DNA from: Candidatus Thorarchaeota archaeon
GTDB taxonomy: Archaea > Asgardarchaeota > Thorarchaeia > Thorarchaeales > Thorarchaeaceae
Length of the DNA stretch: 11,474 nucleotides
NCBI GenBank assembly: GCA_048882385.1
Contig: JBHLRQ010000094.1
Coordinates: 1-11,474, forward strand
Direction: 5' to 3'
Positions 1 through 11,474 of the stretch are shown piece after piece. Position 1 is the stretch's first letter. Every line of letters starts with the position of its first letter. Under the pieces are notes generated by a model. It searched no databases and was not told the origin of the DNA. It worked only from the letters and a program-made list of their open reading frames with translations. Position numbers and translations under genes: made by a program.

Positions 1-381
1 GATCCGAATAGAGAAACCATAGACGATTTAGAAACCCTCTTTGCTAAGAGAACTGAACCCAAAGAAGTTCCATCCGACTGGGAAATTGTCCACACAATGC
101 TTGCAGATGGAAAGTATGCTTTTCGAAACGATAACTGCGTTTTTCTTAATGCCATAGGAGAAGACCTGCCTGATTCTGAGCTAAAATACTACGTCTGTTG
201 CTATGGTGATTATGAGAAGTTCAGGAATTACCATGATAGTGTAATCCTAACAATGGAACACACAATTGCCCAAGGGGATCCATACTGTTCTCGTGTACTT
301 CATGACACTCGGGTTGACTGGAATCTACAACACCCTCCGAAGAGCTTCTGGGACAGCATGGAACCTGATAATGAACATTAA
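1..381 (+). CDS. 5'-truncated L-2-amino-thiazoline-4-carboxylic acid (ATC) hydrolase-like protein
   Basis: The frame is open from base 1 (DPNRETIDDLETLFAKR...) into the 97..381 ORF, so the gene starts outside the window. The Cys pattern NCVF...VCCYGD...TMEHTIAQGDPYC resembles the family's 'TxAxGxxxC' C-terminal motif. Confidence 0.6.
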   Translation, partial: DPNRETIDDLETLFAKRTEPKEVPSDWEIVHTMLADGKYAFRNDNCVFLNAIGEDLPDSELKYYVCCYGDYEKFRNYHDSVILTMEHTIAQGDPYCSRVLHDTRVDWNLQHPPKSFWDSMEPDNEH

Positions 382-463
382 AACATCTTTGTTCCTTTAT
401 ACATAACATAATTTTCAAATTGCTATCGAGCCCAAAGTTGTCTATCGTTAAATTGTATTAGAA

Positions 464-895
464 GTGTGGCACATGACATCATTAGATGATTTTCACATTA
501 AAGTCGATATTCCCATTGCTTGGGGCGACATGGACGCTTTCAAACATGTAAACAATACACTATTTTTCAGATACTTTGAAACTGCCCGTATAAGATACTT
601 TGAGGAAGCCGGGTTCCTTGAAACCATGGAGAAGAACTCTATTGGTCCAATCTTGGGTAGCATCTCAGCCAAATTTATCAAACCCCTGTTTTATCCTGAT
701 ACAGTAACTGTAGGTGCTCGAGTAACTTCTATTGAACCAACCCAATTCATGATGGAATATATTATCGAGAGTAAGTCCAAGGGAATCGCTGCCATCGGTG
801 AATCTAGAATGGTGGTATATGATTACAAGTCTTCAAAGAGAACAAACCTTCCTGAATCCGTCAGAAACAAGATCAGAGAGATTGATTCTATTTAG
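464..895 (+). CDS. Acyl-CoA thioesterase (hotdog fold, 4HBT/YbgC/FadM family)
   Basis: Motif WGDMDAFKHVNNTLFFRYFETAR and FIKPLFYPD; ~140 aa. ATG at 473 is an alternative start. Confidence 0.92.
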   Translation: MWHMTSLDDFHIKVDIPIAWGDMDAFKHVNNTLFFRYFETARIRYFEEAGFLETMEKNSIGPILGSISAKFIKPLFYPDTVTVGARVTSIEPTQFMMEYIIESKSKGIAAIGESRMVVYDYKSSKRTNLPESVRNKIREIDSI

Positions 896-905
896 AACGA
901 GAAAG

Positions 906-937
906 TGGCGCCCCCGCCGGGACTTGAATCCGGGTCT
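906..937 (-). repeat. tRNA-Asp 3'-end fragment, copy 1 (att-like)
   Basis: Minus strand reads AGACCCGGATTCAAGTCCCGGCGGGGGCGCCA, 29/32 identical to tRNA bases 3858-3889. It overlaps the TAG stop of the methyltransferase. Confidence 0.92.
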
Positions 938-1772
938 ATGGCACTTCTCCAATTCCTAAGAACATGCTAACCATCAAGAATCTACCAGGATGATTAAGAA
1001 ACTCATCCAACTCTTTGTAAACCTTATCACTTTCTTCAGAAGTGATGATGCCTTGTTCAATCAAAAGATCCTTTATTTGTTCGTAACTCTGTTTTAAATT
1101 AGAAATATACGCTTCTAGAGCTTCTGCATTATCTCTCGTCATAACGGCCGGAAGTGGAATGATTCTAATCGACTTCAGTTCTGCTTGTTGGAATATGTCA
1201 TATAGCTGTTTTCCAATGTGTCGATTGACATTTTTTGTTTTCATCCATTCAATAGATTTCATTCTAAGTTCTGTTGACTTCGGAGTTGGTGGATAGATTA
1301 GCATTACATCATCATCAGTATCTGACACCGCAACAATTCCCCCGCTTTTTGTCACACGTCGTAGCTCAGATACTACCTTAACAGGATTTTGAACATGCAT
1401 TAAGACAAGTCTACAATATGATAAATCGAACATGGAATCGGAGAATCGGAGGTCTGTGACATCCCCCACCTCAAACTGAATATTCTCAATCTCTTCTTTG
1501 GCTGCAAATTCCTTAGCCTTTGTTATAAAGAATTCATCAAGATCAACTCCAACCACGTTCGAAGGTGCAACTCTTTTGGCAATTCTTCTTGTAACTGCAC
1601 CTGTTCCGCAACCAGCATCAAGGATTTTTAATCCTGAAGCAATCTGCAATATATCAAACTCATTGCTTAGGTGTTCTTCATCCTCATCTGCTTGAAATTC
1701 AAGACGAGTTACTTCCTCTTCCGTACCTTCATGCACATAACCTGTTCTTTCGTTCATCTCCAATCTCTCCAC
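936..1772 (-). CDS. Class I SAM-dependent methyltransferase (UbiE/Methyltransf_11/31-like)
   Basis: Motif I ILDAGCGTG, then VVGVDLD, GDVTDLRFSDSMFDL and LRRVTKSGG. Confidence 0.93.
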   Translation of the reverse strand: MERLEMNERTGYVHEGTEEEVTRLEFQADEDEEHLSNEFDILQIASGLKILDAGCGTGAVTRRIAKRVAPSNVVGVDLDEFFITKAKEFAAKEEIENIQFEVGDVTDLRFSDSMFDLSYCRLVLMHVQNPVKVVSELRRVTKSGGIVAVSDTDDDVMLIYPPTPKSTELRMKSIEWMKTKNVNRHIGKQLYDIFQQAELKSIRIIPLPAVMTRDNAEALEAYISNLKQSYEQIKDLLIEQGIITSEESDKVYKELDEFLNHPGRFLMVSMFLGIGEVP

Positions 1773-1863
1773 AATTATTTAGCACTCGGTTGAAACAAAC
1801 TGTTCGCTGACTAATGACCATTTTGGAATTCAAGTGTTTAGTGAAAAAAGTCATGAAGAGAAG

Positions 1864-1894
1864 TGGCGCCCCCGCCGGAACTTGAACCCAGGTC
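1864..1894 (-). repeat. tRNA-Asp 3'-end fragment, copy 2 (att-like)
   Basis: Minus strand reads GACCTGGGTTCAAGTTCCGGCGGGGGCGCCA, 27/31 identical to tRNA bases 3859-3889. It overlaps the TGA stop of the LRR gene. Confidence 0.9.
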
Positions 1895-3344
1895 ATTCGT
1901 ATATGTACTCAAGCATTGTTATGTACTTCCAATCAGTTTCAATATCATTCAAATGCTGCCGTATTTGATCGATTTCATTCTTTGTCAAAGTGTATCTTTT
2001 TCTCGTTTGATTCCTAGGGAGTACAAATCCTCTTTCTTCAAACGCTTGTTGACCATAAACAGTATCCAACAATGAATGAATGTAGTAGTTATCACCAAGT
2101 CTGTTGTCTTTTGAATACTGGATGAACACGACATCTCGTATCTCTTTGACACGTATCTCTTGTATCCTTGGAATGAACTGATCAAACATTGATTTATCTG
2201 ATATAATCTTCTCAATATCAAACCCTTTTGTACTGTGTTCACCATCAAGATACCGAGCTACCATATCTACAATGTTTTCATCTAGACGTTCCTTGACAAT
2301 CTTTGTATTTGGTCTTCTCCTGTTGGTGGGTTCAACTAATCGTAATAGGTCCGTGGGAATAACACAACGAGAGATATCAATTTGATACCTGTCTCTCTCA
2401 ATACCGCATGCCTTCAAGATGTACCTATTAAGACCAAGCCAGTAGATTGGTGCGAAGAATGACGCATACTCTTGTAGTATAACATAGGTAGTCTTCCAAT
2501 CCTCTTTTGGCAACTTGGCATATACAATATCACTCTGTGTTTCATTAACACGAAGCCATGTTTTCCCACATTCTTGTGAAACCAAAATAGGCAGACTAAT
2601 CCGACGAAATCCTCCACTGTCAAACATCTTAATCGTATTTTTGAAGACCAAGAGATTTGGCAAGCTTAGTAATGGAGTACAGTCCATTGGAGGTACAACA
2701 CTAAAGTCTGGAGGTTCATGAATCCAGCGAAACACGTCTGCATGATGTTCTATTGAGAGATGCACCAATTCCTGTAGATGCACAAGCGGTGTAAGGTCAA
2801 TAGAATCATCATTTGTAGAAATTGCTAGGCCTCGTAATCCCTTGCACTTACTAATGATCAATATATCGGGATGAAATAAATCTGGATTAAATCTACCACT
2901 CACAATCCTAAGAAACCGCAACGATTTACAGTCGCCAATATTATCCATTCTGATATTTCTGAGACTCTTATTGTCAACTATATGTATGCCCCTAATTCTT
3001 GGAGCTTCTAGCAAAATTCGCATATCAATCTCTTCAATCTCTGGATTTTGTGCAATCCTCATGTATTCAAGAGATGCACACTCATTGACAGAAGTCATGT
3101 CTATTTCTTTATAGGAACCGCCTCGTATCATGATTCTTTTCAAGTTTGAAAGACGAAACAAAAAATCCAGAGAAAGATGTTCTTTGAAATTAGTATTTAG
3201 ATGAATAATCAGGTTTTCAAATTCTTTCTCATCTAATAGTGATAATTCGGACTCCAGTTGAGCCATCGTGTATATGAATTTGATTTCAACAGTTTTACCC
3301 CTCTGTATATGTTCAGGAGAGGGATCCTTTCTCCTACCGACCAT
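1893..3344 (-). CDS. Leucine-rich repeat protein with uncharacterised C-terminal region
   Basis: N-terminal half has degenerate LRRs (LSNLKRIMI, CASLEYMRIAQN, CKSLRFLRI, IDLTPLVHLQELVHLSI, MDCTPLLSLPNL). Start codon uncertain. Confidence 0.75.
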   Translation of the reverse strand: MVGRRKDPSPEHIQRGKTVEIKFIYTMAQLESELSLLDEKEFENLIIHLNTNFKEHLSLDFLFRLSNLKRIMIRGGSYKEIDMTSVNECASLEYMRIAQNPEIEEIDMRILLEAPRIRGIHIVDNKSLRNIRMDNIGDCKSLRFLRIVSGRFNPDLFHPDILIISKCKGLRGLAISTNDDSIDLTPLVHLQELVHLSIEHHADVFRWIHEPPDFSVVPPMDCTPLLSLPNLLVFKNTIKMFDSGGFRRISLPILVSQECGKTWLRVNETQSDIVYAKLPKEDWKTTYVILQEYASFFAPIYWLGLNRYILKACGIERDRYQIDISRCVIPTDLLRLVEPTNRRRPNTKIVKERLDENIVDMVARYLDGEHSTKGFDIEKIISDKSMFDQFIPRIQEIRVKEIRDVVFIQYSKDNRLGDNYYIHSLLDTVYGQQAFEERGFVLPRNQTRKRYTLTKNEIDQIRQHLNDIETDWKYITMLEYIYE

Positions 3345-3477
3345 AAGTAGGTCTAGTCATAATCCCTATAATATCATCTGATAGTCAATGTGTGGTGTTT
3401 TGAACAAGATGTTACATTCGAAAAGCAATCAAGTGGAAAATGAATAGTGTGAGAATGATGATTGCACTGAGAGAAAG

Positions 3478-3509
3478 TGGCGCCCCCGCCGGGACTTGAA
3501 CCCGGGTCT
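3478..3509 (-). repeat. tRNA-Asp 3'-end fragment, copy 3 (att-like)
   Basis: Minus strand reads AGACCCGGGTTCAAGTCCCGGCGGGGGCGCCA, 30/32 identical to tRNA bases 3858-3889, followed by CTTTCTC. Confidence 0.92.
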
Positions 3510-3513
3510 GATT

Positions 3514-3720
3514 ATGCCTATTGATTAGTCCCCTAGTGAAACTATACTTAGTAATAGGGCTGCAGATATTCATGGACAGTACTCGAAGATTAGATGTGCA
3601 TTAGCATTTCCACCCAACCATCCACAGAAATCAAGCCGAAGTGAGAATTTCCTTCGCTCTCAGAATCTGGATGATGTAATGATGATTGGAGAACAGTTGA
3701 AGAATGAAGGAATTCTCTAG
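3514..3720 (+). pseudogene. Possible gene remnant next to repeat copy 3
   Basis: ATG at 3514, in-frame TAG at 3526, then 63 open codons (SPSETILSNRAADIHGQYSKIRCALAFPPNHPQ...EQLKNEGIL) to TAG at 3718-3720. No family recognised. Confidence 0.25.
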
Positions 3721-3744
3721 ATTATGATGTTCTCGACCGATGAG

Positions 3745-3751
3745 TTTAATA
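3745..3751 (+). promoter_or_regulatory. Putative TATA box of the tRNA-Asp gene
   Basis: TTTAATA lies 31-37 nt upstream of the tRNA 5' end. Confidence 0.5.
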
Positions 3752-3781
3752 GAAAATCGACTTTGCTCCAACCGAACCGCA

Positions 3782-3889
3782 GCCCCTGTAGTGTAGTACG
3801 GTCAATGCTGTAAATGTTCTACAGTATCCGGATTAGCATTCAAGACTGTCACTCTTGAGACCCGGGTTCGAATCCCGGCGGGGGCGCCA
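3782..3889 (+). tRNA. tRNA-Asp(GTC) with ~30-nt D-loop intron and encoded CCA
   Basis: Acceptor stem GCCCCTG/CGGGGGC, discriminator G plus CCA, anticodon arm CAAGA-CT GTC AC-TCTTG (anticodon 3848-3850), T arm CCGGG-TTCGAAT-CCCGG. Mature length is about 78 nt after intron removal. Confidence 0.95.
3804..3833 (+). other. Non-canonical (D-loop) tRNA intron with relaxed bulge-helix-bulge motif
   Basis: 8-bp helix ATGCTGTA(3805-3812)/TACAGTAT(3820-3827), central helix ACGG/CCGG (3 of 4 pairs), 3-nt bulges TCA and ATT. Removal restores ...CGGTCTAGCAT. Boundaries may be off by 1 nt. Confidence 0.8.
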
Positions 3890-3895
3890 CTTTTT
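3890..3895 (+). terminator. Oligo-T archaeal terminator of tRNA-Asp
   Basis: CTTTTT immediately follows the CCA. Confidence 0.55.
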
Positions 3896-3905
3896 GACTC
3901 ATGTA

Positions 3906-6900
3906 CTAGTAATAATCAATTACCACTCCCTTGTTTTCAAACGCATCTTCTACCTCTCTCAAGATAGATTCTATTGTATCCTTGCTTACCTTACGATCTC
4001 TTAGATTGAGCTTGACTTCTTGCTTGATGAAGTCAAAAGATATCGATTGGTTCTTTGCAATTTCAGATGATACTGATACTACTATCACCTCCTCAAAGTC
4101 AGTTTCGTCATCTACATTGCACAGATGTGCAATCGCATCCAAAGATCTCTGACGTGAAGATTCCTCCACATGTACTCTGACAAACCTAAGTTCTGGTGCT
4201 GAATCATCAATTTCGAACACTTCGTCATCAATCAGTTTTGACTCTTCCAATTCAGCTGATTCAAGTTCGTCTATTTCCCCAATTATCGAGTTTTGAATTC
4301 GTGGATAATCAGAGAGGAGATGAACCACTCTAAGACTGACAAGAGCCTTTGAATCAATCGTGACATCACACCTTTTCCCGGAATCCGAGTCCACAAGTTG
4401 TCTAGACTCTGCCAATAGAGCTATATCGAATATCCCCATGTCCTCCATCTCAAGACCAATCAGATGTCCTCTTCCCTGTAGTCCATCCAGCTGGATCTTG
4501 AGACACTTCTTGTAACCTCGGTCCTTTCGTTGTTCATCGACTATTATTCTCAGAGTTATGTCTTCACCAGCTTTGGTCATCAAGAAGTCCTCACAGGTCA
4601 GAGGTAATTTGTAGCTGTCTGAATAGAACGAGTATCTGTGGATGAGTGGCTTGAACACTGACAAGTGATAGAAGTCATACTTCCCATCTCTGTTCTTGAG
4701 TTTCACTTCATCATACTCGATGTCTTTCTGAGCATCCCACTTGAGGTATGTGCCGTCTGCAGTCGAAAAGTACTCTCCAATTCTCTGGGGGTATCTGAGG
4801 AATCTGATCACCTCATCAGTATACTGAGTTTCCTTCTTTGCTATGGTCTTTGAGCCTTCATTCAGGTCAATCCTGTAGACCTTTTTTTCAGGGTCAAGGG
4901 TAAGGAAACATGAAACCTCTCTTACCACACCGCTCCACTCAGCAGCCTCTTTTAGCACTTCGTCACACTCTGTTTCGATATCAGAGTAAAAGGAACTTGG
5001 CTTGTACATGTTCAAGGCTACAAGAGTTCCGGGTGACGGTTGTGACAGTCTGATCCAACGTACAGGTTGATTCTGCCCCTTTGGAGGATTTCCGTACTCC
5101 AACAGACCATTCTGAACCCATTCTTCCTCGCCCTTTGTGTAGAGCACGTGTTGTTTGTTCATAAAAACAAGAACAATCGGATATTCCACCCACCCCTCTC
5201 TTGACAAGGCACTTTTTGCACTCTTCGAGAGTTTTTGAGGATCTATCTCACCTCTATACCACCCATAGCGAAGAATGGCACTCATCTGCTCCTCCAACAA
5301 CGCACCAAATATAGTCTTCTTGATTGAAGAAAACAATAGCCAGATACTGCCACCATCACTCTTCTCTTGAAAGAGCAATAGTCCGTGTTGTTCAGGAAAT
5401 CTTGTGGTTGTTTGCGAAGTTGTCTTCTTCATCTGTTTTGCCCTCCATGTGAGATTTGAGTGGATTGCTTGAAAGTCATACCTGTGTTCGAATTCTCCGT
5501 CATCCTGTTGCCTGAAACCAATCTGATAGAGCTGCCATCGTGCAACTGATGACCATAGATTGTTACAATGAGGGGACTCTGCATCTCTTAGGACTCTAGT
5601 TGCTACATCAAGTACTCCAAGAAAGAGATTCATTCCATAGAGATCCATGAGTTCAGGATTATGACCCAATGCTTGTTTCAATGTCCTCAGGTCATCAGAG
5701 TTCAATAGGTTTCCAAGATTCAACCTGTCATTGAGGAGAAGTGTCCAGAGACGCTGAGTTTCAGTTCTGCGAAGAATGGCCTCCCTGACTTGAGTGAGAA
5801 TTTCCAGTAGATTCTCCTCAGTAATAGTTTCGTTGTTGTCATAAGTACAGAGTGAAACGATCTTTCTGTAGAGAGAGCGATAGGAAGTTGGTCTCTTACT
5901 GAGGAACTCAGCAGCGTATGACAACCGTAGGACTTCTCTTCGTCTGGTATCAATCGTATCGATATGAGATGATTCAGATGAATAAGTAAAAGCTGGTCTT
6001 CGGGTGATTGTTACTGATTCTTCTTCCTCTTCGTCAGTTTCTTTATGAATCCACCCTCGTGTGATGGACTTTGCCTCAACATAGATCCCCTCATGACCAG
6101 TTCCTATTCGGTTTGGATGCGGTGGCTCTCTATTCACATCAAGATGCAGTCTGCTTGATAGACTTGGTTGAACACTGTTTGCATTGACACTGTGAAAGGT
6201 CGTTGACCAATCAACATTATGTTTATTGACCAGACTCAGTGGTTGTCCATCTCTAGGTCTGAGAAGACTTGGAATCAGGATGAATGCATGCTTTGTAATT
6301 TCTTCCAAGGAGATCATGTCAATAGTGTCAGAACGCACCTGGATGGATGAACTTCGAAAAGACCGTCCATGCATGTTTTTATGTTGATTCAGATCACCAG
6401 TTTGCCTCTCGATTTTGACAATAGGACTTCTAACGGAAGCCTTGCTGAACTTGCGGCTCAGACCCTTGAGATGCGGTACATGGATGACCGTGGACCATGG
6501 ATCTTGTTTTGTTGGTAGGTCCTGAATGATCACTCGACTGTCCTCATACTCCGGGATCTGCCACCCCATCTTTCGAGGAGCTGTGGGCACATTCCATAGA
6601 ACCTCGTCAATGACTTGTTTCCTGGGAGATTTGTAGTAGAATGGACTTGGACTGTTCCGTTGATAGAGCTCGGAAACCTGTGGAAGGTCAACTCCTGTAT
6701 CAGTCCAGATCACCTCGTTCATGAGATTCTTTACAATCTGAAGCAGTGAAAGTTCAAGCACCTGTAGATTGTTCCTATGAGTCATAGGAGTCATATTCTC
6801 CAAGTCCGACCAGCCATCCACAACTGCAATTCGATTCTCTGACTCAGATTGAAGAGCTGCAGTGATTGCAGACTTCGCTTTCTCGATTCCTGATTGTTTC

Positions 6901-8999
6901 CCGTTGATGAGAAATCCATCAATATCATTTCTAAGACTGACAAAGGTGACTCTTTCTAACAGTCTTCTCAGTCTTGCATATTCTGGATTCGTAATCAGCT
7001 TGTTCTTCTTTAGATCCTCAAGTCCAAATCGTTTCTCTATCAGTTTCTTTGTTGGAAAATCACCGATTAGATCAATCCAAGTCAAAGAAGTTTCTGTGTT
7101 TGCAACCTGTTCAAGCTCTGCAAGGTGGTTCAAGAGATGCCAGTTCTTGGCAAACCATGTTGCACTCTTGCCAAATGATGTTGGAGATGATAGTGAAATG
7201 TACTGAGTGAAGAAGGTGTCATCCTCCACTCTATCTACAAAGGGGTCTTCGAATAGAACATCTTTGAGGGGATTGATACGTTTTAGTACATCCACAGGAC
7301 CTTGTGCTGGAGTCATTGTAACGGCTACTCGAGGAGCTATCTGTTCTGTAGACTTGTCTTTGAATTTGAGTGACTTCCACTGTCCCTTGAATTCTCCTTT
7401 CATTATTCGATTAGCCAGGTCGGAGATGATGTAATCGAACGCTCGCTTTGTGTCTTCGTAGTCTTGAGAAACATCAAGTGTGACCACTCCCTTCCAGAGT
7501 TCTTTGAAAGCAATAGTTTCACCGATGATTGAATGGTACTCTGATAACAGGGCATTCTCATATGCATCTATCTGGTCAAGATGGATTTTAGGGGGCTTTG
7601 AACCAAGTGTTTCACCCCATTCTGATGTCTTGAGAGGTTCTTTCCAAGCGTTCAAGACTGGTGTGAAGACATTGGATTTTTTCGTACGAGGACGTTTTCC
7701 AAATAGGTTGAAGTCGAATCCAGTCTTGGTCTTCACCTCAAGAATCATGATGGGCGCCCAGATATGGCTACCACGCCAACGAATACGAACAAAAAGGACA
7801 AGGTCTATCTTTCCTGATTCTTGAGTTCCAGTGACTGGAACTTCAGCAAAATACTGAAACCCAGAAGGAGTCTGAAGGAGATGGTCTCCAGCAAAGATAG
7901 CCTCTTTGAGTGAGTGAGGTTGAGGATATCCAGAAAGCAACACTCTGTGCCAGTTGTTCCCTTCTAGTTGTACGCTCCTCATGATGTTTTCAAGGAACGT
8001 TTCCACTTCTCTGTGTGTGACGATTCTTCTCTCAATGTGCTGAAGAATTATCCTACATTTCTTCTTGGTTTTTCTGTCTTCTGAGTTTTCTTGTATTGCT
8101 TCAACCTGTTCTTTGAGAGCATCTATTCCAAAACCTTGAGGAACATCTTCGACCGGTTTACTCATTCTCTCTCTAGTCCCAATGTGTCTGCTGTAGTTGT
8201 TCCTGATTTCAAGTACAATCTTTCTCAATTCCCTGTCTGCGCCGGGGGAGAAATCCTTGCGACCTGTCTTTCCTCGTGTGTACACCCAATCGAGAAATGG
8301 GGTCAGTCTATGAATCAACAGTCTAATGTATCGATGTGACTCAGTTCGAGGTACACAATGGATGAAGCATTGTCGACAGAGCTCAATGAGATGAGCTCGT
8401 AGCATATCTCCAAAGTCCATGGCTGGTAGTGTAGGATGTGTAAGTAACACTCGAGGATTCTTAGAGTTGCCTCGATATCCCGCTTTCAAGTGAGTCTTCA
8501 CCCCAAGTGCTGCTGGGACCTTGGCCGCTACATCTTTTGGAATGACTTGCTCTGTTCCATCTGGATATTCTCGGATCTCGTAGAGCTGTGGGGTTGGGAA
8601 TGTATAACGTGGAACAACGATATCTCGTAGTGTTGCTCCAGCATAATTCAGTAGACTATTGAGTTCTCCAATGGTGCCCTCTTTCCAGCTGTATACTCGC
8701 CTCCTCTCTTTGTTGCCGTATCGTTTCGTGCTAAGCCAGAGCATACGTAGATTCAGCTTTCTGAGGTGGGATTCTATCTTCTGAACTTTAGAGAAATCAT
8801 GCGGGCGGCTTGATCCGTCCATTTTCTTATTCACTTGGATAGATTTCCATTTGTTTCTAATTTTTTCAAAGATTTCTTCTGTCTGTCTATTCTTTCGTCT
8901 ATTTGCTAACCAGACTAGAGCTGATAATCCTGAATAAAGTGCAGTAGCTAGAACTACATTCGGTCTGAATTCCTGAGTTCTTCTCCCCAAATAGGACAC
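3906..8999 (-). CDS. Large multidomain protein: PD-(D/E)XK nuclease domain + degenerate P-loop NTPase-like domain + long unknown C-terminal region
   Basis: 1697-aa uninterrupted ORF. Nuclease motifs E386, GKID399, ILE421VK423 and Q476IDAY480 (RecB/Cas4-like QxxxY). Walker A-like SSPTSFGK611S and Walker B-like RIAVVD728G. The true start may be ATG at 8822 (MDGSS). Confidence 0.8.
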   Translation of the reverse strand: MSYLGRRTQEFRPNVVLATALYSGLSALVWLANRRKNRQTEEIFEKIRNKWKSIQVNKKMDGSSRPHDFSKVQKIESHLRKLNLRMLWLSTKRYGNKERRRVYSWKEGTIGELNSLLNYAGATLRDIVVPRYTFPTPQLYEIREYPDGTEQVIPKDVAAKVPAALGVKTHLKAGYRGNSKNPRVLLTHPTLPAMDFGDMLRAHLIELCRQCFIHCVPRTESHRYIRLLIHRLTPFLDWVYTRGKTGRKDFSPGADRELRKIVLEIRNNYSRHIGTRERMSKPVEDVPQGFGIDALKEQVEAIQENSEDRKTKKKCRIILQHIERRIVTHREVETFLENIMRSVQLEGNNWHRVLLSGYPQPHSLKEAIFAGDHLLQTPSGFQYFAEVPVTGTQESGKIDLVLFVRIRWRGSHIWAPIMILEVKTKTGFDFNLFGKRPRTKKSNVFTPVLNAWKEPLKTSEWGETLGSKPPKIHLDQIDAYENALLSEYHSIIGETIAFKELWKGVVTLDVSQDYEDTKRAFDYIISDLANRIMKGEFKGQWKSLKFKDKSTEQIAPRVAVTMTPAQGPVDVLKRINPLKDVLFEDPFVDRVEDDTFFTQYISLSSPTSFGKSATWFAKNWHLLNHLAELEQVANTETSLTWIDLIGDFPTKKLIEKRFGLEDLKKNKLITNPEYARLRRLLERVTFVSLRNDIDGFLINGKQSGIEKAKSAITAALQSESENRIAVVDGWSDLENMTPMTHRNNLQVLELSLLQIVKNLMNEVIWTDTGVDLPQVSELYQRNSPSPFYYKSPRKQVIDEVLWNVPTAPRKMGWQIPEYEDSRVIIQDLPTKQDPWSTVIHVPHLKGLSRKFSKASVRSPIVKIERQTGDLNQHKNMHGRSFRSSSIQVRSDTIDMISLEEITKHAFILIPSLLRPRDGQPLSLVNKHNVDWSTTFHSVNANSVQPSLSSRLHLDVNREPPHPNRIGTGHEGIYVEAKSITRGWIHKETDEEEEESVTITRRPAFTYSSESSHIDTIDTRRREVLRLSYAAEFLSKRPTSYRSLYRKIVSLCTYDNNETITEENLLEILTQVREAILRRTETQRLWTLLLNDRLNLGNLLNSDDLRTLKQALGHNPELMDLYGMNLFLGVLDVATRVLRDAESPHCNNLWSSVARWQLYQIGFRQQDDGEFEHRYDFQAIHSNLTWRAKQMKKTTSQTTTRFPEQHGLLLFQEKSDGGSIWLLFSSIKKTIFGALLEEQMSAILRYGWYRGEIDPQKLSKSAKSALSREGWVEYPIVLVFMNKQHVLYTKGEEEWVQNGLLEYGNPPKGQNQPVRWIRLSQPSPGTLVALNMYKPSSFYSDIETECDEVLKEAAEWSGVVREVSCFLTLDPEKKVYRIDLNEGSKTIAKKETQYTDEVIRFLRYPQRIGEYFSTADGTYLKWDAQKDIEYDEVKLKNRDGKYDFYHLSVFKPLIHRYSFYSDSYKLPLTCEDFLMTKAGEDITLRIIVDEQRKDRGYKKCLKIQLDGLQGRGHLIGLEMEDMGIFDIALLAESRQLVDSDSGKRCDVTIDSKALVSLRVVHLLSDYPRIQNSIIGEIDELESAELEESKLIDDEVFEIDDSAPELRFVRVHVEESSRQRSLDAIAHLCNVDDETDFEEVIVVSVSSEIAKNQSISFDFIKQEVKLNLRDRKVSKDTIESILREVEDAFENKGVVIDYY

Positions 9000-9165
9000 T
9001 CCAGCTATTCCTTTTCAATTTTATTTATAAGTATTTCATACTTATTCAGAAGTCTATAATTTATAAAAATAGCCTTATCAGTTTTTATTTTCTTAATTAA
9101 AGGATTTATAATATATTTTCATAATAACTTAATAAGGAAACTTGTATGATAAATCTATGAGTTAA
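9000..9165. promoter_or_regulatory. Very AT-rich divergent promoter region containing the self-target 9126-9140
   Basis: Several TATA-like boxes (TTTATAA 9060, TTTATAAT 9105, TTAATAA 9129) lie between two head-to-head genes. Confidence 0.65.
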
Positions 9166-9168
9166 TTA

Positions 9169-9236
9169 CTCCAATTCTAGACAAAGATTGGAGTGAACTC
9201 AACTGACCTGAAACAGGTCAGAACTTAATAAGGAAA
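9169..9236 (+). ncRNA. Candidate leader/tracr-like RNA with built-in 15-nt guide
   Basis: Hairpins CTCCAAT/ATTGGAG (9169-9193) and CTGACCTG-AAA-CAGGTCAG (9203-9221). Bases 9186-9214 are complementary to downstream repeat 1. Bases 9222-9236 are identical to 9126-9140. Confidence 0.55.
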
Positions 9237-9245
9237 GACAAAGCG

Positions 9246-10922
9246 ATGGCTCGGTCCAAGGGTGTGACAATCTCGGTTAAGGTCCCAATCAACTGGGAAG
9301 CCATGACCGAGAGGACTAAGCAGAGACTTAGGCAGACCATTGGGCGAGACACCAGAGTGATACGTGCATTCCTTGGAATTATTGAACAACATGAAGACAA
9401 GTTGTTGACAGGTCGTAAGAAAAATCGGATTGATGAAGGTGAGCTGGATAAGCTCACTATGACTGCACTCCAAGTCAAGGCGGGCTATAGTCAGAGACTG
9501 ACCGTACCTCATGACTTCAAGGCGAGGTTCCCTCGAATATCTCAGAACGAGATGACCGAGTGCAGACAGACTGCAGTTTCTTTGTATGAGAGTTATCTTA
9601 AGCTCAGAATAAAGAATGGATTGAGAGCTTCTCGCCCTGCATCAATCAATAGAAGTCGACGTATTCCCAGATGGGTCTTTGCTCAACGATTCAGACTTGT
9701 TGAAAAACGTACATCTTCAGCCCGCTGGTGGCTAGACATCAGGGATTCTCTTGACTCCGTACAGGCTGGACGTACATTTCACGATAGATTAGTCATTCCA
9801 TTGAAGGTTTCACCCTTTCACCTGAATCAACTCCACCGTGGAGATGTAAAGGCTGTACAGATCTTCACTGATCGATTCAGAAAGTGGTGGGTGACAATGG
9901 CTGTCAGGGTAGCGGTTGATGACTTCCACAAGAGTGAGCTTCCTGCAGCGATACTTGGAATAGACCTCGGCATTGAAAAGGCCGCATGTTCAACTCTTCT
10001 GACTCCAGAGAAGACGAGGGAAACAAGATACTTCATCCAAAAAGAGAAGGTCAAGGTCATCAAGAAGTACGATGGACTTGTCGCCGACCTGCAGAGGAAA
10101 ATGCACCTCCGCAGAGACAACGGAAAACCTCATGATAAGATGGCAGTAAGGCTCCGACAGATGAAGAGTAAGAGGGAGAATGTAGCCAAGGAGTATGATA
10201 GAGTTCTAGTTCGACAACTCCTTGATTACATCTCCACACTGTCCAAGAAATACACACTCTATGTTGCCATTGGTCGCCTGAAGAATATACGAATGCGTGC
10301 CAGAAGAGGAAACTATCAAGGTTCTAGGTACCGGGCCATGATACATTCATGGGCTTTTGCCCGGATAACCGATAGTCTGAAACATGGACTTGCTCAGCTC
10401 GGTTGGAAGGTTGAGGGAAAGGACTCGAGGTTCCGTGCAGTTCCTGAGGCTTGGACTTCCATCATGTGCTGGAAGTGTGGAAGCAGGGGTAAGAGACCCA
10501 AACAGAACTATTTCCACTGTCCATCCTGTGGTCACAAGACCAACGCTGATAGGAATGGTAGTATCAATATTGCTGCACGCATGCTTAAGCTCACAAAGTC
10601 ACTGCACTCTGTGAGAGGACTAGGTATGTGGACTAGAGCTCTAGATGGAGTTCGACGTGCACGACCAAAAGCTCAAGAGAAACAACTTTCTCAAGGGAAG
10701 TCCTTACTCTCTTTTAAGGATCAAACATCAGATCTTGGAGAGTCCGCGGCTGTTCACCATACTCAGATGAGTCTTCTCAGCTTCAGCGATGAATCTGGGA
10801 AGGGTGATGATGACCCCGCCGTGGTAAGTACTGTGGAAACTCTTGCTGTCGTTGGAAGTGATGATCCGACATCAGTACAGGAGAAAAAAGCCAGGTCTTC
10901 AGGAGGGATTCCATCCCGATGA
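9246..10922 (+). CDS. tnpB: TnpB/Cas12f-like RNA-guided RuvC protein with rearranged catalytic site
   Basis: RuvC-I ILGID240LG; RuvC-II position YVAIG343RL (Gly instead of Glu); alternative Glu in VPE401AWTS; zinc ribbon C408/C411/C425/C428; RuvC-III NAD435RNGSINIA; ~115-aa C-terminal tail. Confidence 0.88.
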   Translation: MARSKGVTISVKVPINWEAMTERTKQRLRQTIGRDTRVIRAFLGIIEQHEDKLLTGRKKNRIDEGELDKLTMTALQVKAGYSQRLTVPHDFKARFPRISQNEMTECRQTAVSLYESYLKLRIKNGLRASRPASINRSRRIPRWVFAQRFRLVEKRTSSARWWLDIRDSLDSVQAGRTFHDRLVIPLKVSPFHLNQLHRGDVKAVQIFTDRFRKWWVTMAVRVAVDDFHKSELPAAILGIDLGIEKAACSTLLTPEKTRETRYFIQKEKVKVIKKYDGLVADLQRKMHLRRDNGKPHDKMAVRLRQMKSKRENVAKEYDRVLVRQLLDYISTLSKKYTLYVAIGRLKNIRMRARRGNYQGSRYRAMIHSWAFARITDSLKHGLAQLGWKVEGKDSRFRAVPEAWTSIMCWKCGSRGKRPKQNYFHCPSCGHKTNADRNGSINIAARMLKLTKSLHSVRGLGMWTRALDGVRRARPKAQEKQLSQGKSLLSFKDQTSDLGESAAVHHTQMSLLSFSDESGKGDDDPAVVSTVETLAVVGSDDPTSVQEKKARSSGGIPSR

Positions 10923-11474
10923 ATGTTGACAACGCTCTTGCTAATTTTGGCAAATTCTTTTGGATTTTGCTAGGAGGTGGTGACACTGGCAAGAGAGGGG
11001 CGGAACACAGAGGTTTCTTTCAGTTGTGGTTCACTCACAATCTCAGAAGCAGGTCATACACTACAGGGGCTCGGGTACTATGATTGAGCATAGAGGTTAT
11101 TTGCAGTTGCGGAACACACACAATATCAAAAGCAGGTCATGATGTTCACTCACTTTGTGGAATAGGTTATGCTAGATCGGACTTCACTTGGTATAGCATA
11201 GTATTAGATGAATGAGTGAATCATTCTGATAGGTCATGGAGTAACATCTAAGGACTTGTTCTAAATCCCACCTAGTGTTACGGAGATATAGCTCACTAAC
11301 CAACAGCCTGAGTAGTTGTGAAAAGATTACAGAGTAGATTTATTACCATCCGAGCCCTATAGAAGAGTGGCTCACAGAGCCAAGCTGCCCCTAGACCTTA
11401 CTCCATTTCTGTGTTTTATCGCAACCCTTTTATGGCTACAGAATTCCCCGTCCTTTGCTCAGACAGAACTGCTT
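10923..11474 (+). ncRNA. Candidate large structured ncRNA/guide region downstream of the tnpB-like gene (may extend past the window end)
   Basis: No substantial ORF. Many stems: 10935-41/10989-95, 11002-14/11405-17, 11067-74/11350-57, 11145-52/11213-20, 11168-74/11194-200, 11236-44/11398-406, 11368-82. AGGT(C/T)AT recurs. Confidence 0.55.
11009..11140 (+). CRISPR. Mini-array-like unit: two imperfect 49-bp direct repeats around a 34-nt spacer that matches the tRNA-Asp gene
   Basis: Repeats 11009-11057 and 11092-11140 match at 40/49 positions and both end in AAGCAGGTCAT. Bases 11057-11071 are the exact reverse complement of 3781-3795. Not a canonical CRISPR array. Confidence 0.55.

Follow-up and report, generated by a model that had tools for sequence, protein, structure and literature searches.

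The window is an 11,474-nt stretch of DNA from a Candidatus Thorarchaeota archaeon (contig JBHLRQ010000094.1, positions 1 to 11,474), which carries a giant gene, a TnpB-like gene followed by an RNA scaffold, and a tRNA gene. The giant gene lies on the reverse strand (3906..8999) and encodes a protein of 1697 amino acids from a GTG codon. An initial annotation, made from the letters of the sequence, proposed this open reading frame, and it is real, being present in both the list of reading frames and the translation. Translation probably begins instead at the TTG of residue 4 (position 8990), which would give a protein of 1694 amino acids; this start is preferred because the family consensus opens with MGR there and one public record begins there. 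Comparison with a 91%-identical orthologue gave a dN/dS of 0.24 for the giant gene, and purifying selection acts on both this gene and the TnpB-like gene.

The intron-containing tRNA gene (3782..3893, forward strand) is convergent with the giant gene and lies 12 nt from its stop. Its anticodon is GUC (Asp) according to an Rfam alignment and Arg-CCG according to ARAGORN. The 54 nt ahead of the tRNA include a TATA-like sequence, TTTAATAG, and may be no more than the tRNA promoter. A 36-nt copy of a tRNA 3' end is found at 3474..3509 on the reverse strand and is possibly the remnant of an attachment or target site.

Homologues of the giant protein include 50 of approximately 1600–1900 amino acids, and every match with a named source comes from Thorarchaeota or Promethearchaeota. 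The family was found at 47 genomic loci, and 61 sequences, with identities down to 24%, form the alignment on which all column counts given below are based. The giant protein has no match in Pfam, NCBIfam, PADLOC, or PHROGs, and sequence and profile searches against the PDB returned nothing. The ESM Atlas gave no usable match for the whole protein or for residues 1005–1697.

Domains of the giant protein

At the N terminus of the giant protein (residues 5–256; 8232..8987, reverse strand) lies a Cas1-like catalytic alpha-helical domain, with E76, N114, H188, D195, and D198 as its key residues. Cas1 is the spacer integrase of CRISPR systems and the transposase of casposons. In the fold search, the giant protein matched the C-terminal alpha-helical catalytic fold of Cas1, and it has both the 'NALL.Y' motif and the catalytic Glu in a conserved helix. 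When aligned by hhalign with 10 canonical Cas1 sequences (E 0.012 and 0.0014), E76 stands opposite the invariant Glu and N114 opposite the invariant Asn. H188 and LD195FGD198MIR resemble H...LDIxEEFR of Cas1, a correspondence matched by eye, as the profile alignment ended before these residues. Conservation in the 61 sequences is high: E76 is kept in 56 (the other five have gaps), N114 and D195 in 59 each, and H188 and D198 in 60 each. The N-terminal beta-sandwich domain of Cas1 is absent; the match begins at residue 5 of the protein, equivalent to residue ~83–114 of the Cas1 chains, so there is no room for it. The Pfam model PF01867 did not match the giant protein, 19 family members, or a six-frame translation of the organism's own genome. 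No Cas2 was detected among the six window ORFs scanned, and a repeat scan of 3300–11474 found no CRISPR array other than two copies of the scaffold end. The initial annotation had described the N terminus as a basic region, which holds for its charge (+16 net in residues 1–120) and overlooks that the region is in fact the Cas1-like domain. This domain shifts the likeliest chemistry of the protein from 'nuclease/ATPase' to 'integrase plus nuclease'.

A PD-(D/E)XK-type nuclease region follows at residues ~360–535 (7395..7922, reverse strand). Its motifs FAE386VP, GKID399L, ILE421VK423, and DQ476IDAY480 are all present as first listed, and E386, D399, K423, Q476, and Y480 are kept in 61 of 61 family sequences, while position 421 holds E in 56 sequences and D in five. 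The motif set claimed at the outset is thus borne out across the alignment as more than chance. An AF2 model places the elements of this region in beta-beta-beta-alpha order. We count the PD-(D/E)XK fold as inferred, since no fold-search row spans the region. The motifs are those of Cas4-type PD-(D/E)XK or RecB nucleases. Membership of Cas4 itself is ruled out by the lack of both cysteines and profile similarity: residues 355–540 contain none of the cysteines that hold the Fe-S cluster of Cas4, the Cas4 model PF01930 has no match in the organism's own genome, and hhalign against seven Cas4 sequences gave only E 0.67 on an unrelated stretch. Cas4–Cas1 fusions and Cas4/Cas1/Cas2 complexes (e.g., PDB 7mi4 and 8d3p) also differ in order, as the Cas1-like domain comes first in the giant protein, and no Cas2 or array accompanies it.

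Residues 592–900 (6300..7226, reverse strand) form a RecA/RadA/KaiC/DnaB-like domain, with the degenerate Walker A SSPTSFGKS and the Walker-B-like VVDGW. The motifs SSPTSFGK611S, TWID643, and VVD728G were confirmed, and the suggestion of a RecA fold drawn from the last two was right, as fold searches found a RecA-like core. The P-loop does lack its first Gly, with Ser at that position in 59 of 61 sequences and Gly in two. G610 is kept in 59 sequences, K611 in only 40, D728 of the Walker B motif (VVD728GW) in 58, and D643 in all 61. An intact Walker A, GxxxxGK[ST], is missing family-wide; the giant protein itself retains G610-K611-S612. The Ser at the first Gly and the partial loss of the Lys set the domain apart from RadA/Rad51 paralogues, KaiC, Elp4/5/6, and DnaB, as does its embedding in a protein of 1700 amino acids.

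The rest of the chain is a family-specific C-terminal module (residues 1005–1580; 4260..5987, reverse strand), composed of a helical subdomain followed by alpha/beta subdomains, and an acidic, variable tail (residues 1581–1697; 3909..4259, reverse strand) with a net charge of -16. The module is conserved across all paralogues, and its AF2 pLDDT is mostly 80–95. A profile search with it gave 221 matches. Among the 150 listed, the long proteins (at least ~1400 amino acids) resemble the query, and in these the module runs from about residue 920–1250 onward, as in the query. No family-library or atlas match to the module was found, and the rows listed by the four fold searches touching the C-terminal half, one of which reached residue 1150, were filled by RecA-like or Cas1 matches. 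The estimate of ~900 unassignable amino acids stands for ~690 C-terminal residues (1005–1697) plus linkers and fails for the remainder. Together, these domains support the claim of a multi-domain DNA-processing protein.

The TnpB-like gene and its RNA scaffold

The TnpB/Cas12f-like gene (9246..10922, forward strand) encodes a protein of 558 amino acids with a C4 zinc finger and a RuvC site that has been rearranged (D240, E401, and D435, with G343 at the position of the RuvC-II Glu). In PADLOC, it matches only Cas12f/Cas12u-type models. Such a gene lies divergently upstream of the giant gene at 31 of the 47 related loci, and the head-to-head pairing is seen at 27 of the 28 loci that have more than 1900 nt of upstream flank. 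The giant gene is accordingly a conserved neighbor of the guide effector, which fits the link to that effector drawn in the initial annotation.

Two types of TnpB occur in the family. All 23 short-type proteins have Gly at RuvC-II and a Glu in 'PExW', whereas all five long-type proteins keep the canonical RuvC-II Glu and are missing the 'PExW' Glu. The rearrangement of the RuvC-II Glu is already described in section 8 of PMC10691335. Judged from its residues, the TnpB-like protein is probably active. The idea that TnpB is a nuclease-dead repressor, there to regulate or recruit the giant protein, was considered and rejected, as E401 compensates for the lost RuvC-II Glu in 23 of 23 short-type proteins.

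The two genes are separated by a divergent intergenic region (9000..9245), and the gap measures 220–260 nt at most loci. The region contains conserved hairpins and an invariant TATAAG (9026–9031), ~30 nt from the start of the giant gene. Ahead of the TnpB-like gene lies GGAGTGAAC (9190–9198), an inverted copy of the end motif.

Downstream of the TnpB-like gene is the 3' part of a guide-RNA (omega-RNA)-like scaffold (10923..11057, forward strand), whose conserved end, ...GGTCAT, falls at 11057. The motif GTTCACTCA lies ~100 nt past the TnpB stop (11029–11037), occurs exactly at 11029 and 11144, and was found with at most one mismatch at the equivalent place in 23 of 23 regions scanned. The scaffold shows covariation: 94.2% of cells are paired, compared with 42–48% when the alignment is slid, 14 of 23 pairs show a compensatory change, and none of 500 shuffles reached the observed values. 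A degenerate duplicate of the scaffold end (11086..11152, forward strand) is specific to the window, is 80% identical to 11003–11057, and leads into the second GTTCACTCA.

A 15-mer follows directly on the scaffold (11057..11071, forward strand) and matches, in reverse complement, the beginning of the tRNA gene (5' end, 3781–3795). These are the only two sites of the 15-mer in the 3.7-Mb genome, and they belong to a 20-nt inverted pair (3776–3795 and 11057–11076). The 15-mer may be either a guide or the remnant of a target. A subset of loci lies beside tRNA genes. At loci L006 and L010, the RNA end directly adjoins a complete tRNA, and a 3' fragment of a tRNA comes after the stop of the giant gene, forming direct repeats. 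Seven of 25 modules have a tRNA gene or T-arm within 600 nt, and the other 18 have no tRNA signal. A general rule linking guide and tRNA fails because of these 18 modules and because a T-arm-like segment at locus L012 mismatches the nearby tRNA.

Distribution, age, and ends of the module

The giant-protein family is patchy and multi-copy. It is present in 43 of 77 genomes of the organism's own GTDB family and in three of 11 genomes of one other family, with up to 10 matches per genome, and none of 213 genomes from 28 further families of the phylum contains it. Only one copy of the giant gene occurs in the organism's own genome, which counts against the transposase or integrase reading set out below.

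Against the syntenic locus L002, dS is 0.169 (giant gene) and 0.301 (TnpB-like gene), compared with 0.99 and 1.03 for the two flanking genes. The module is much younger than its chromosomal flanks, and the block shared between the compared loci has sharp ends. There is evidence that the module has been exchanged between lineages at one chromosomal site. When the flanking DNA was searched against 28 genomes of the genus, genome G013, the source of L002, was the only one in which the orthologous site was found. Contigs from four DNA runs are fragmented, and none of them joins across the element; all four runs have loose contig ends at 3892–3894, which probably come from other tRNA genes.

Searches around the whole module revealed neither a target-site duplication nor a convincing terminal inverted repeat, and no repeats were found flanking most of the other loci. 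The conserved end signals bracket only a TnpB cassette of ~1.9 kb (9124–11057), with the giant gene outside it, and the resemblance between the left end of the block and the left end of the cassette is unconvincing. Across 20 loci, the identities of TnpB and of the giant protein are discordant (Spearman 0.20); between loci L027 and L040, for example, TnpB is 83% identical and the giant protein 31%. This discordance implies that the two genes do not always travel together. A solo cassette remnant, without a giant gene, is also present elsewhere in the organism's own genome.

Proposed role and alternative readings

The aCas1–TnpB description of Altae-Tran et al. reportedly builds on Makarova et al. 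(2020, CRISPR J). The divergent TnpB-like gene and the covarying scaffold with the published GTTCACTCA identify the locus as an aCas1–TnpB element. The giant protein belongs to the aCas1 family of very large Cas1-like proteins that accompany TnpB in Thorarchaeota elements, and its gene is a further copy of a known, catalogued kind. According to part of the text of Altae-Tran et al. (2023, PMC10691335), such elements of Asgard archaea form the groups Cas1H-Asgard-1 and -2. The following features of them are shared here: the Asgard (Thorarchaeota) host, the Cas1 homologue beside TnpB, GTTCACTCA downstream of tnpB, the two TnpB types, and the Glu-to-Gly rearrangement at RuvC-II. For repeats flanking the locus, a further mark of these elements, the candidates are the 20-nt inverted pair of the window and the tRNA-derived direct repeats at L006 and L010. 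Nothing found in this analysis speaks against membership. The word 'novel' in the initial annotation is not supported, given that both the pairing and the downstream motif already stand in PMC10691335. The aCas1 family appears in surveys, but no bench study of it turned up in a literature search. Four points are possibly reported here for the first time: how the domains of the giant protein are arranged, the difference in dS between module and flanks, the discordant identities of TnpB and the giant protein, and the match between the 15-mer and the tRNA gene.

We infer, with moderate confidence, that this aCas1 member is the DNA breakage-and-joining enzyme (transposase or integrase) of the TnpB element. 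The Cas1-like site (E76, H188, and D195/D198) would attach 3'-OH ends to target DNA, in the manner of Cas1 and casposases. The PD-(D/E)XK site would cut or trim the other strand or the ends, by analogy with TnsA in Tn7 and Cas4 in adaptation, and the RecA-like domain would serve in assembly or DNA binding and not in ATP turnover. By analogy with TnpB of IS200/IS605 elements, for which such a role has been shown, TnpB and its RNA may be a separate RNA-guided nuclease that aids the persistence or homing of this element. A transposase role for aCas1 has been proposed before, in the part of PMC10691335 that deals with it. A Cas1-like site, a second nuclease, and a RecA-like domain beside an apparently active TnpB are a candidate for a new mode of moving DNA, and the protein may link transposons with CRISPR adaptation. 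The window supplies candidate catalytic residues, a scaffold with a defined end, and a candidate guide of 15 nt that matches one other site in the genome.

Several casposons insert at the ends of tRNA genes. Casposases, the Cas1-family transposases of casposons (e.g., PDB 6opm), likewise belong to mobile elements without a CRISPR array. In contrast to casposases, the giant protein lacks the N-terminal beta domain, is approximately five times larger, and carries the nuclease, RecA-like, and further modules. The element also differs from casposons in its pairing with TnpB, in the lack of a family-B polymerase among the window ORFs scanned, and in that neither terminal inverted repeats nor a target duplication was found around the module. 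Tn7 and CRISPR-associated transposons (CASTs) use the TnsA nuclease, the TnsB joining enzyme, the TnsC ATPase adaptor, and an RNA-guided selector. The likeness to them is one of analogy, with a PD-(D/E)XK nuclease, a strand-joining enzyme, a P-loop-type domain, and a neighboring RNA-guided protein. However, the joining domain here is Cas1-like and not DDE, the P-loop domain is RecA-like, decayed, and not AAA+, all modules lie in one chain, and the RNA-guided protein appears catalytically competent from its residues.

A closer parallel with CASTs would be an RNA-guided Cas1 transposon, in which the 15-nt guide of the TnpB RNA points to the tRNA 5' end and the giant protein is recruited and inserts the element beside it at a set distance, with the RecA-like and C-terminal modules serving as an adaptor like TnsC. 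This reading is unlikely. The sole other genomic match of the 15-mer is indeed the tRNA 5' end, 111 nt beyond the stop of the giant gene; the 15-mer is retained in L002 and L007, even though the L007 element is only ~73% identical; the TnpB and giant genes are obligately paired; and the scaffold at L006 and L010 runs into the end of a tRNA gene. The same 15-mer is, however, equally explained as the remnant of a disrupted tRNA target, and alongside the 18 modules without a tRNA relation, no match of the guide-tRNA type was found in L003, L012, or other loci. The element sits at the TAM-proximal end of its putative target, the reverse of the type V-K geometry. The TnpB-like protein also has a complete, rearranged catalytic site, whereas the transposon-recruiting Cas12k is inactive, as stated in a passage of PMC10691335. 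If true, this reading would give a third independent case of a DNA-insertion enzyme joined to an RNA-guided protein, one that uses Cas1 chemistry and occurs in the archaeal lineage closest to eukaryotes. The earlier cases are the Tn7-like CASTs and the IS110 bridge-RNA recombinases.

It is decidedly improbable that the giant protein is no transposase but a cellular or defense enzyme of the DNA-repair or nuclease kind, with the 1.9-kb TnpB cassette merely inserting by, or being kept by, its promoter. Conserved end signals that enclose the cassette alone, the discordant phylogenies of TnpB and the giant protein, and the solo remnant would fit such an enzyme. However, the giant gene is itself patchy and multi-copy, and its dS (0.17) is far below that of the flanks (~1.0), which means that it moves or is replaced as well. 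A transposase-less cassette would also need a transposase, for which the giant protein is the only always-adjacent candidate, and the Cas1 fold is an integrase fold. No PADLOC or NCBIfam family was matched. The 'defense nuclease' offered by the initial annotation is likewise not supported, as PADLOC gave no match and the locus has the traits of a mobile element.

In the transposase or integrase reading that we prefer, the giant protein acts on its own element; that it would instead write guides, as a Cas4–Cas1-like adaptation module that inserts them into the RNA gene of TnpB and a one-spacer forerunner of CRISPR adaptation, is very remote, as there is no Cas2, the Cas1 N-terminal domain is missing, no guide turnover was detected among paralogous loci, a second GTTCACTCA (at most one mismatch) occurs in only two of 23 regions (the window, exactly, and L007, with one mismatch), and the variable stretches around GTTCACTCA are complementary by eye, like a covarying stem and not like spacers, even though the hypervariable stretch by GTTCACTCA resembles the start of a CRISPR repeat in the account given in part of PMC10691335, and the window holds two 55-nt copies of the scaffold end in an array-like arrangement, separated by 28 nt that open with the tRNA-derived 15-mer.

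Domains of the giant protein

The giant gene is a 1697-aa open reading frame on the minus strand (3906..8999) with a GTG start. Its fourth codon, a TTG, is where a public record and the consensus of the family both start, so the true length is probably 1694 aa. Translation and an alignment of 61 giant-protein sequences, down to 24% identity, bore out the frame and motifs of the initial annotation. The nuclease motifs E386, D399, E421xK423 and Q476xxxY480 are all present, together with the Walker A-like SSPTSFGKS (last residue S612), TWID643 and VVD728G. The N-terminus is basic, with a net charge of +16 over residues 1–120. In the alignment, E386, D399, K423, Q476 and Y480 are invariant (61/61), and position 421 is Glu in 56 sequences and Asp in 5. 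The P-loop is degenerate, as had been claimed: Ser replaces the first Gly in 59/61 sequences and G610 is conserved in 59/61, with K611 in just 40/61. D643 is found in 61/61 and D728 in 58/61. Across sequences this divergent, such conservation is far above chance.

The giant protein had no match in Pfam, NCBIfam, PADLOC or PHROGs, 19 family members had none in Pfam, and a search of PDB sequences by single query or profile gave none. For want of a curated-library match, two overlapping pieces were folded with the 61-sequence alignment. The predicted model of residues 1–1150 reached a mean pLDDT of 85.0 and a pTM of 0.78, and that of residues 560–1697 a mean pLDDT of 81.7. Structural search of the first model against representatives returned rows of two families, Cas1 and RecA, of which the Cas1 domain had been missed in the initial annotation. 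The RecA-like part is also supported by Foldseek and by the second model.

H188 and LD195FGD198MIR resemble, by eye, the catalytic His and LDIxEEFR of Cas1. Because the alignment with Cas1 stopped short of H188, D195 and D198, these are putative catalytic residues; they are conserved in 56–60 of 61 sequences, with exceptions that are mostly gaps. The N-terminal beta domain of Cas1 is absent, since the structural match begins at residue 5. In the model, the nuclease region (residues ~360–535) follows the strand-strand-strand-helix order typical of PD-(D/E)XK enzymes; it had no row among the fold-search matches listed, which were filled by Cas1 and RecA. A Cas4 identity was rejected for this region, which contains no cysteines, has no Pfam Cas4 match and shows no profile similarity to seven Cas4 proteins. 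Residues 1005–1580 form a well-predicted module conserved in all paralogues. An exhaustive profile search with this module (1.84 billion representatives) yielded 221 proteins, and among the 150 matches listed, every long protein has the module at the same C-terminal place as the giant protein.

We give somewhat better than an even chance to the reading that the element's breakage-and-joining enzyme is the giant protein, which would combine Cas1-like joining with PD-(D/E)XK cutting and act separately from TnpB. The Cas1-like site would join 3'-OH ends to target DNA, while the PD-(D/E)XK site would cut the complementary strand or trim ends, by analogy with TnsA or Cas4 and without homology to them. 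Assembly or DNA binding may be the role of the RecA-like domain, given a P-loop that is decayed family-wide. TnpB and its RNA would constitute a separate RNA-guided nuclease.

TnpB-like neighbour and RNA scaffold

A TnpB/Cas12f-like gene (9246..10922, plus strand, 558 aa) is oriented divergently to the giant gene. Searches for giant-protein relatives gave 50 proteins and, separately, 47 loci, found only in Thorarchaeota-type MAGs apart from two loci in Ignavibacteria-labelled bins. These two, L028 and L035, come from a MAG named 'uncultured Ignavibacteria bacterium'; every other named locus is Thorarchaeota or archaeal, and misbinning, not transfer to bacteria, is the probable cause. A profile of the TnpB-like protein detected a divergent neighbour at 31/47 loci; where the upstream flank exceeds 1900 nt, it did so at 27 of 28 loci, all but L039. 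The gap between the two genes is mostly 220–260 nt.

The TnpB-like proteins are of two types, 23 short (544–609 aa; 558 here) and 5 long (714–721 aa). In the short type, the RuvC-II Glu is changed to Gly and a Glu appears in 'PExW' (23/23), with D240, D435 and the zinc finger retained; the long type has the canonical RuvC-II Glu and lacks the 'PExW' Glu (5/5). A dead, repressor-like TnpB was rejected because this relocation matches the RuvC-II rearrangement described as probably active in section 8 of Altae-Tran et al. (PMC10691335).

A conserved non-coding stretch 3' of the TnpB-like gene has a covarying structure at 16 loci. In this scaffold, 94.2% of cells are paired versus 42–48% with partners slid, 14/23 pairs show compensatory change, and 0/500 shuffles reached the observed values. 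GTTCACTCA occurs with at most one mismatch in 23/23 regions. Where the TnpB frame ends as in the window (16 regions), it lies ~100 nt past the stop codon; the other seven have a longer frame, with the motif at the corresponding alignment position just ahead of its stop.

According to PMC10691335, the TnpBs of two Asgard groups are associated with 'aCas1', a proposed transposase, and a conserved GTTCACTCA lies downstream of their tnpB. The window has a TnpB beside a Cas1-like gene with GTTCACTCA downstream, and is therefore a member of this published aCas1-TnpB kind. The interpretation in the initial annotation is partly right: the giant protein is a DNA-processing partner of the guide effector (27/28 pairing), but it is not novel, aCas1-TnpB being already published. 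The family is striking; this copy mainly adds detail, some of which may already be in print.

The 55-nt scaffold end recurs in degenerate form (80%) at 11086–11152, followed by a second exact GTTCACTCA. The two copies are 28 nt apart, and the stretch between them starts with a tRNA-derived 15-mer. This duplicate is absent from L002, the closest related locus, and is either array-like or the scar of an older insertion. The solo remnant L076 in the same genome (G000:C147:4799-5031, 79% identical) retains the last ~100 nt of a TnpB frame and the scaffold, and terminates in GGTCAT with no TnpB or giant gene nearby.

tRNA genes and element ends

An intron-bearing tRNA gene (3782–3893) lies 12 nt from the giant gene stop. 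Its intron is at a non-canonical position, and ARAGORN misses the gene without intron mode. It is Arg-CCG by ARAGORN intron mode, and its anticodon loop CUGUCAC reads GUC/Asp by Rfam alignment. The 15-mer at 11057–11071, directly after the scaffold, is the reverse complement of the 5' end of this gene, and the sequence has no further occurrence in the 3.7-Mb genome. At two related loci, L006 and L010, the RNA end adjoins a complete tRNA-Gly gene, and beyond the giant gene stop comes a diverged tRNA 3' half with a degenerate element-end copy; the arrangement amounts to an att-like direct repeat. Of the 25 modules, 7 (~5 independent sites) have a tRNA gene or T-arm less than 600 nt away, far above the 0.04 T-arm motif matches expected per 1200 nt at these loci. 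CAST-like insertion guided by RNA is favoured by the 15-mer/tRNA match, but it is rather unlikely, given that TnpB looks active and that the remaining 18/25 modules show no such tRNA association. In several genomes of the genus, a 34-nt tRNA 3'-end sequence is repeated two to four times within 1–1.5 kb (e.g., G016:C151:3643-5100 and G020:C52:73-1036), a pattern like that of attachment-site remnants stacked at tRNA insertion hot spots.

The conserved end signals enclose only the ~1.9-kb TnpB cassette (about 9124–11057), with the giant gene outside. The left signal is an inverted motif copy (9190–9198) with hairpins upstream of TnpB, and the right signal is the RNA end, ...GGTCAT. The giant protein could instead be a non-transposase cellular or defence protein with cassettes merely sitting beside it, which we consider improbable; the defence-nuclease reading of the initial annotation is not supported, the giant protein having no PADLOC match and the features being those of a mobile element. 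A guide-writing adaptation enzyme is highly improbable.

Pairwise identities of TnpB and the giant protein are nearly uncorrelated (Spearman 0.20; 20 loci from L002 to L044, 190 pairs). L027 and L040 share 83% identity in TnpB and 31% in the giant protein, and L015 and L017 share 46% and 71%, respectively. This discordance implies that cassettes and giant genes have been reshuffled among co-resident elements. Around the module as a whole, neither a target duplication nor convincing terminal repeats were found. No contig from four DNA runs bridges an empty site, and no RNA run contains the locus.

Distribution and age of the module

The distribution is patchy. Residues 1–560 have matches in 46/301 genomes of the phylum: 43/77 in its own family (own genome counted), 3/11 in one other family and 0/213 in 28 further families, with up to 10 matches per genome. 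Within the genus, 11/24 other genomes have matches. In the own genome there is a single giant gene, a single TnpB gene and a lone RNA-end remnant.

In L002 the module occupies the corresponding chromosomal site. Relative to L002, the giant gene has a dS of 0.169 and TnpB one of 0.301, versus 0.99 and 1.03 for the two flanking genes. Both module genes are under purifying selection, with dN/dS of 0.24 and 0.18, respectively. Sharp ends delimit the shared block at about 3727 and 11071, and L007, just ~73% identical, has both boundaries. The low dS and common boundaries argue that the flanks had long diverged when the module was exchanged or re-inserted here. In L007 (10004–12302), the giant gene is split into 585-aa N-terminal and 145-aa C-terminal frames with most of the middle gone, and is still flanked by TnpB and that same tRNA gene.

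The stretch 1879–3721 is missing from syntenic L002 and may be a second inserted element. It is flanked by 34–36-nt tRNA 3'-end copies on the minus strand (902–937 and 3474–3509). Its 483-aa ORF (1893..3344, minus strand) has no family in Pfam, NCBIfam, PADLOC or PHROGs, a weak LRR match being the only hint. Besides many generic methyltransferase models, the adjoining SAM-dependent methyltransferase gene (936–1772, minus strand) matches the PADLOC model 'mad2' (E 1.6e-22, 121 residues), and the 'mad2' match probably reflects only the common methyltransferase fold.
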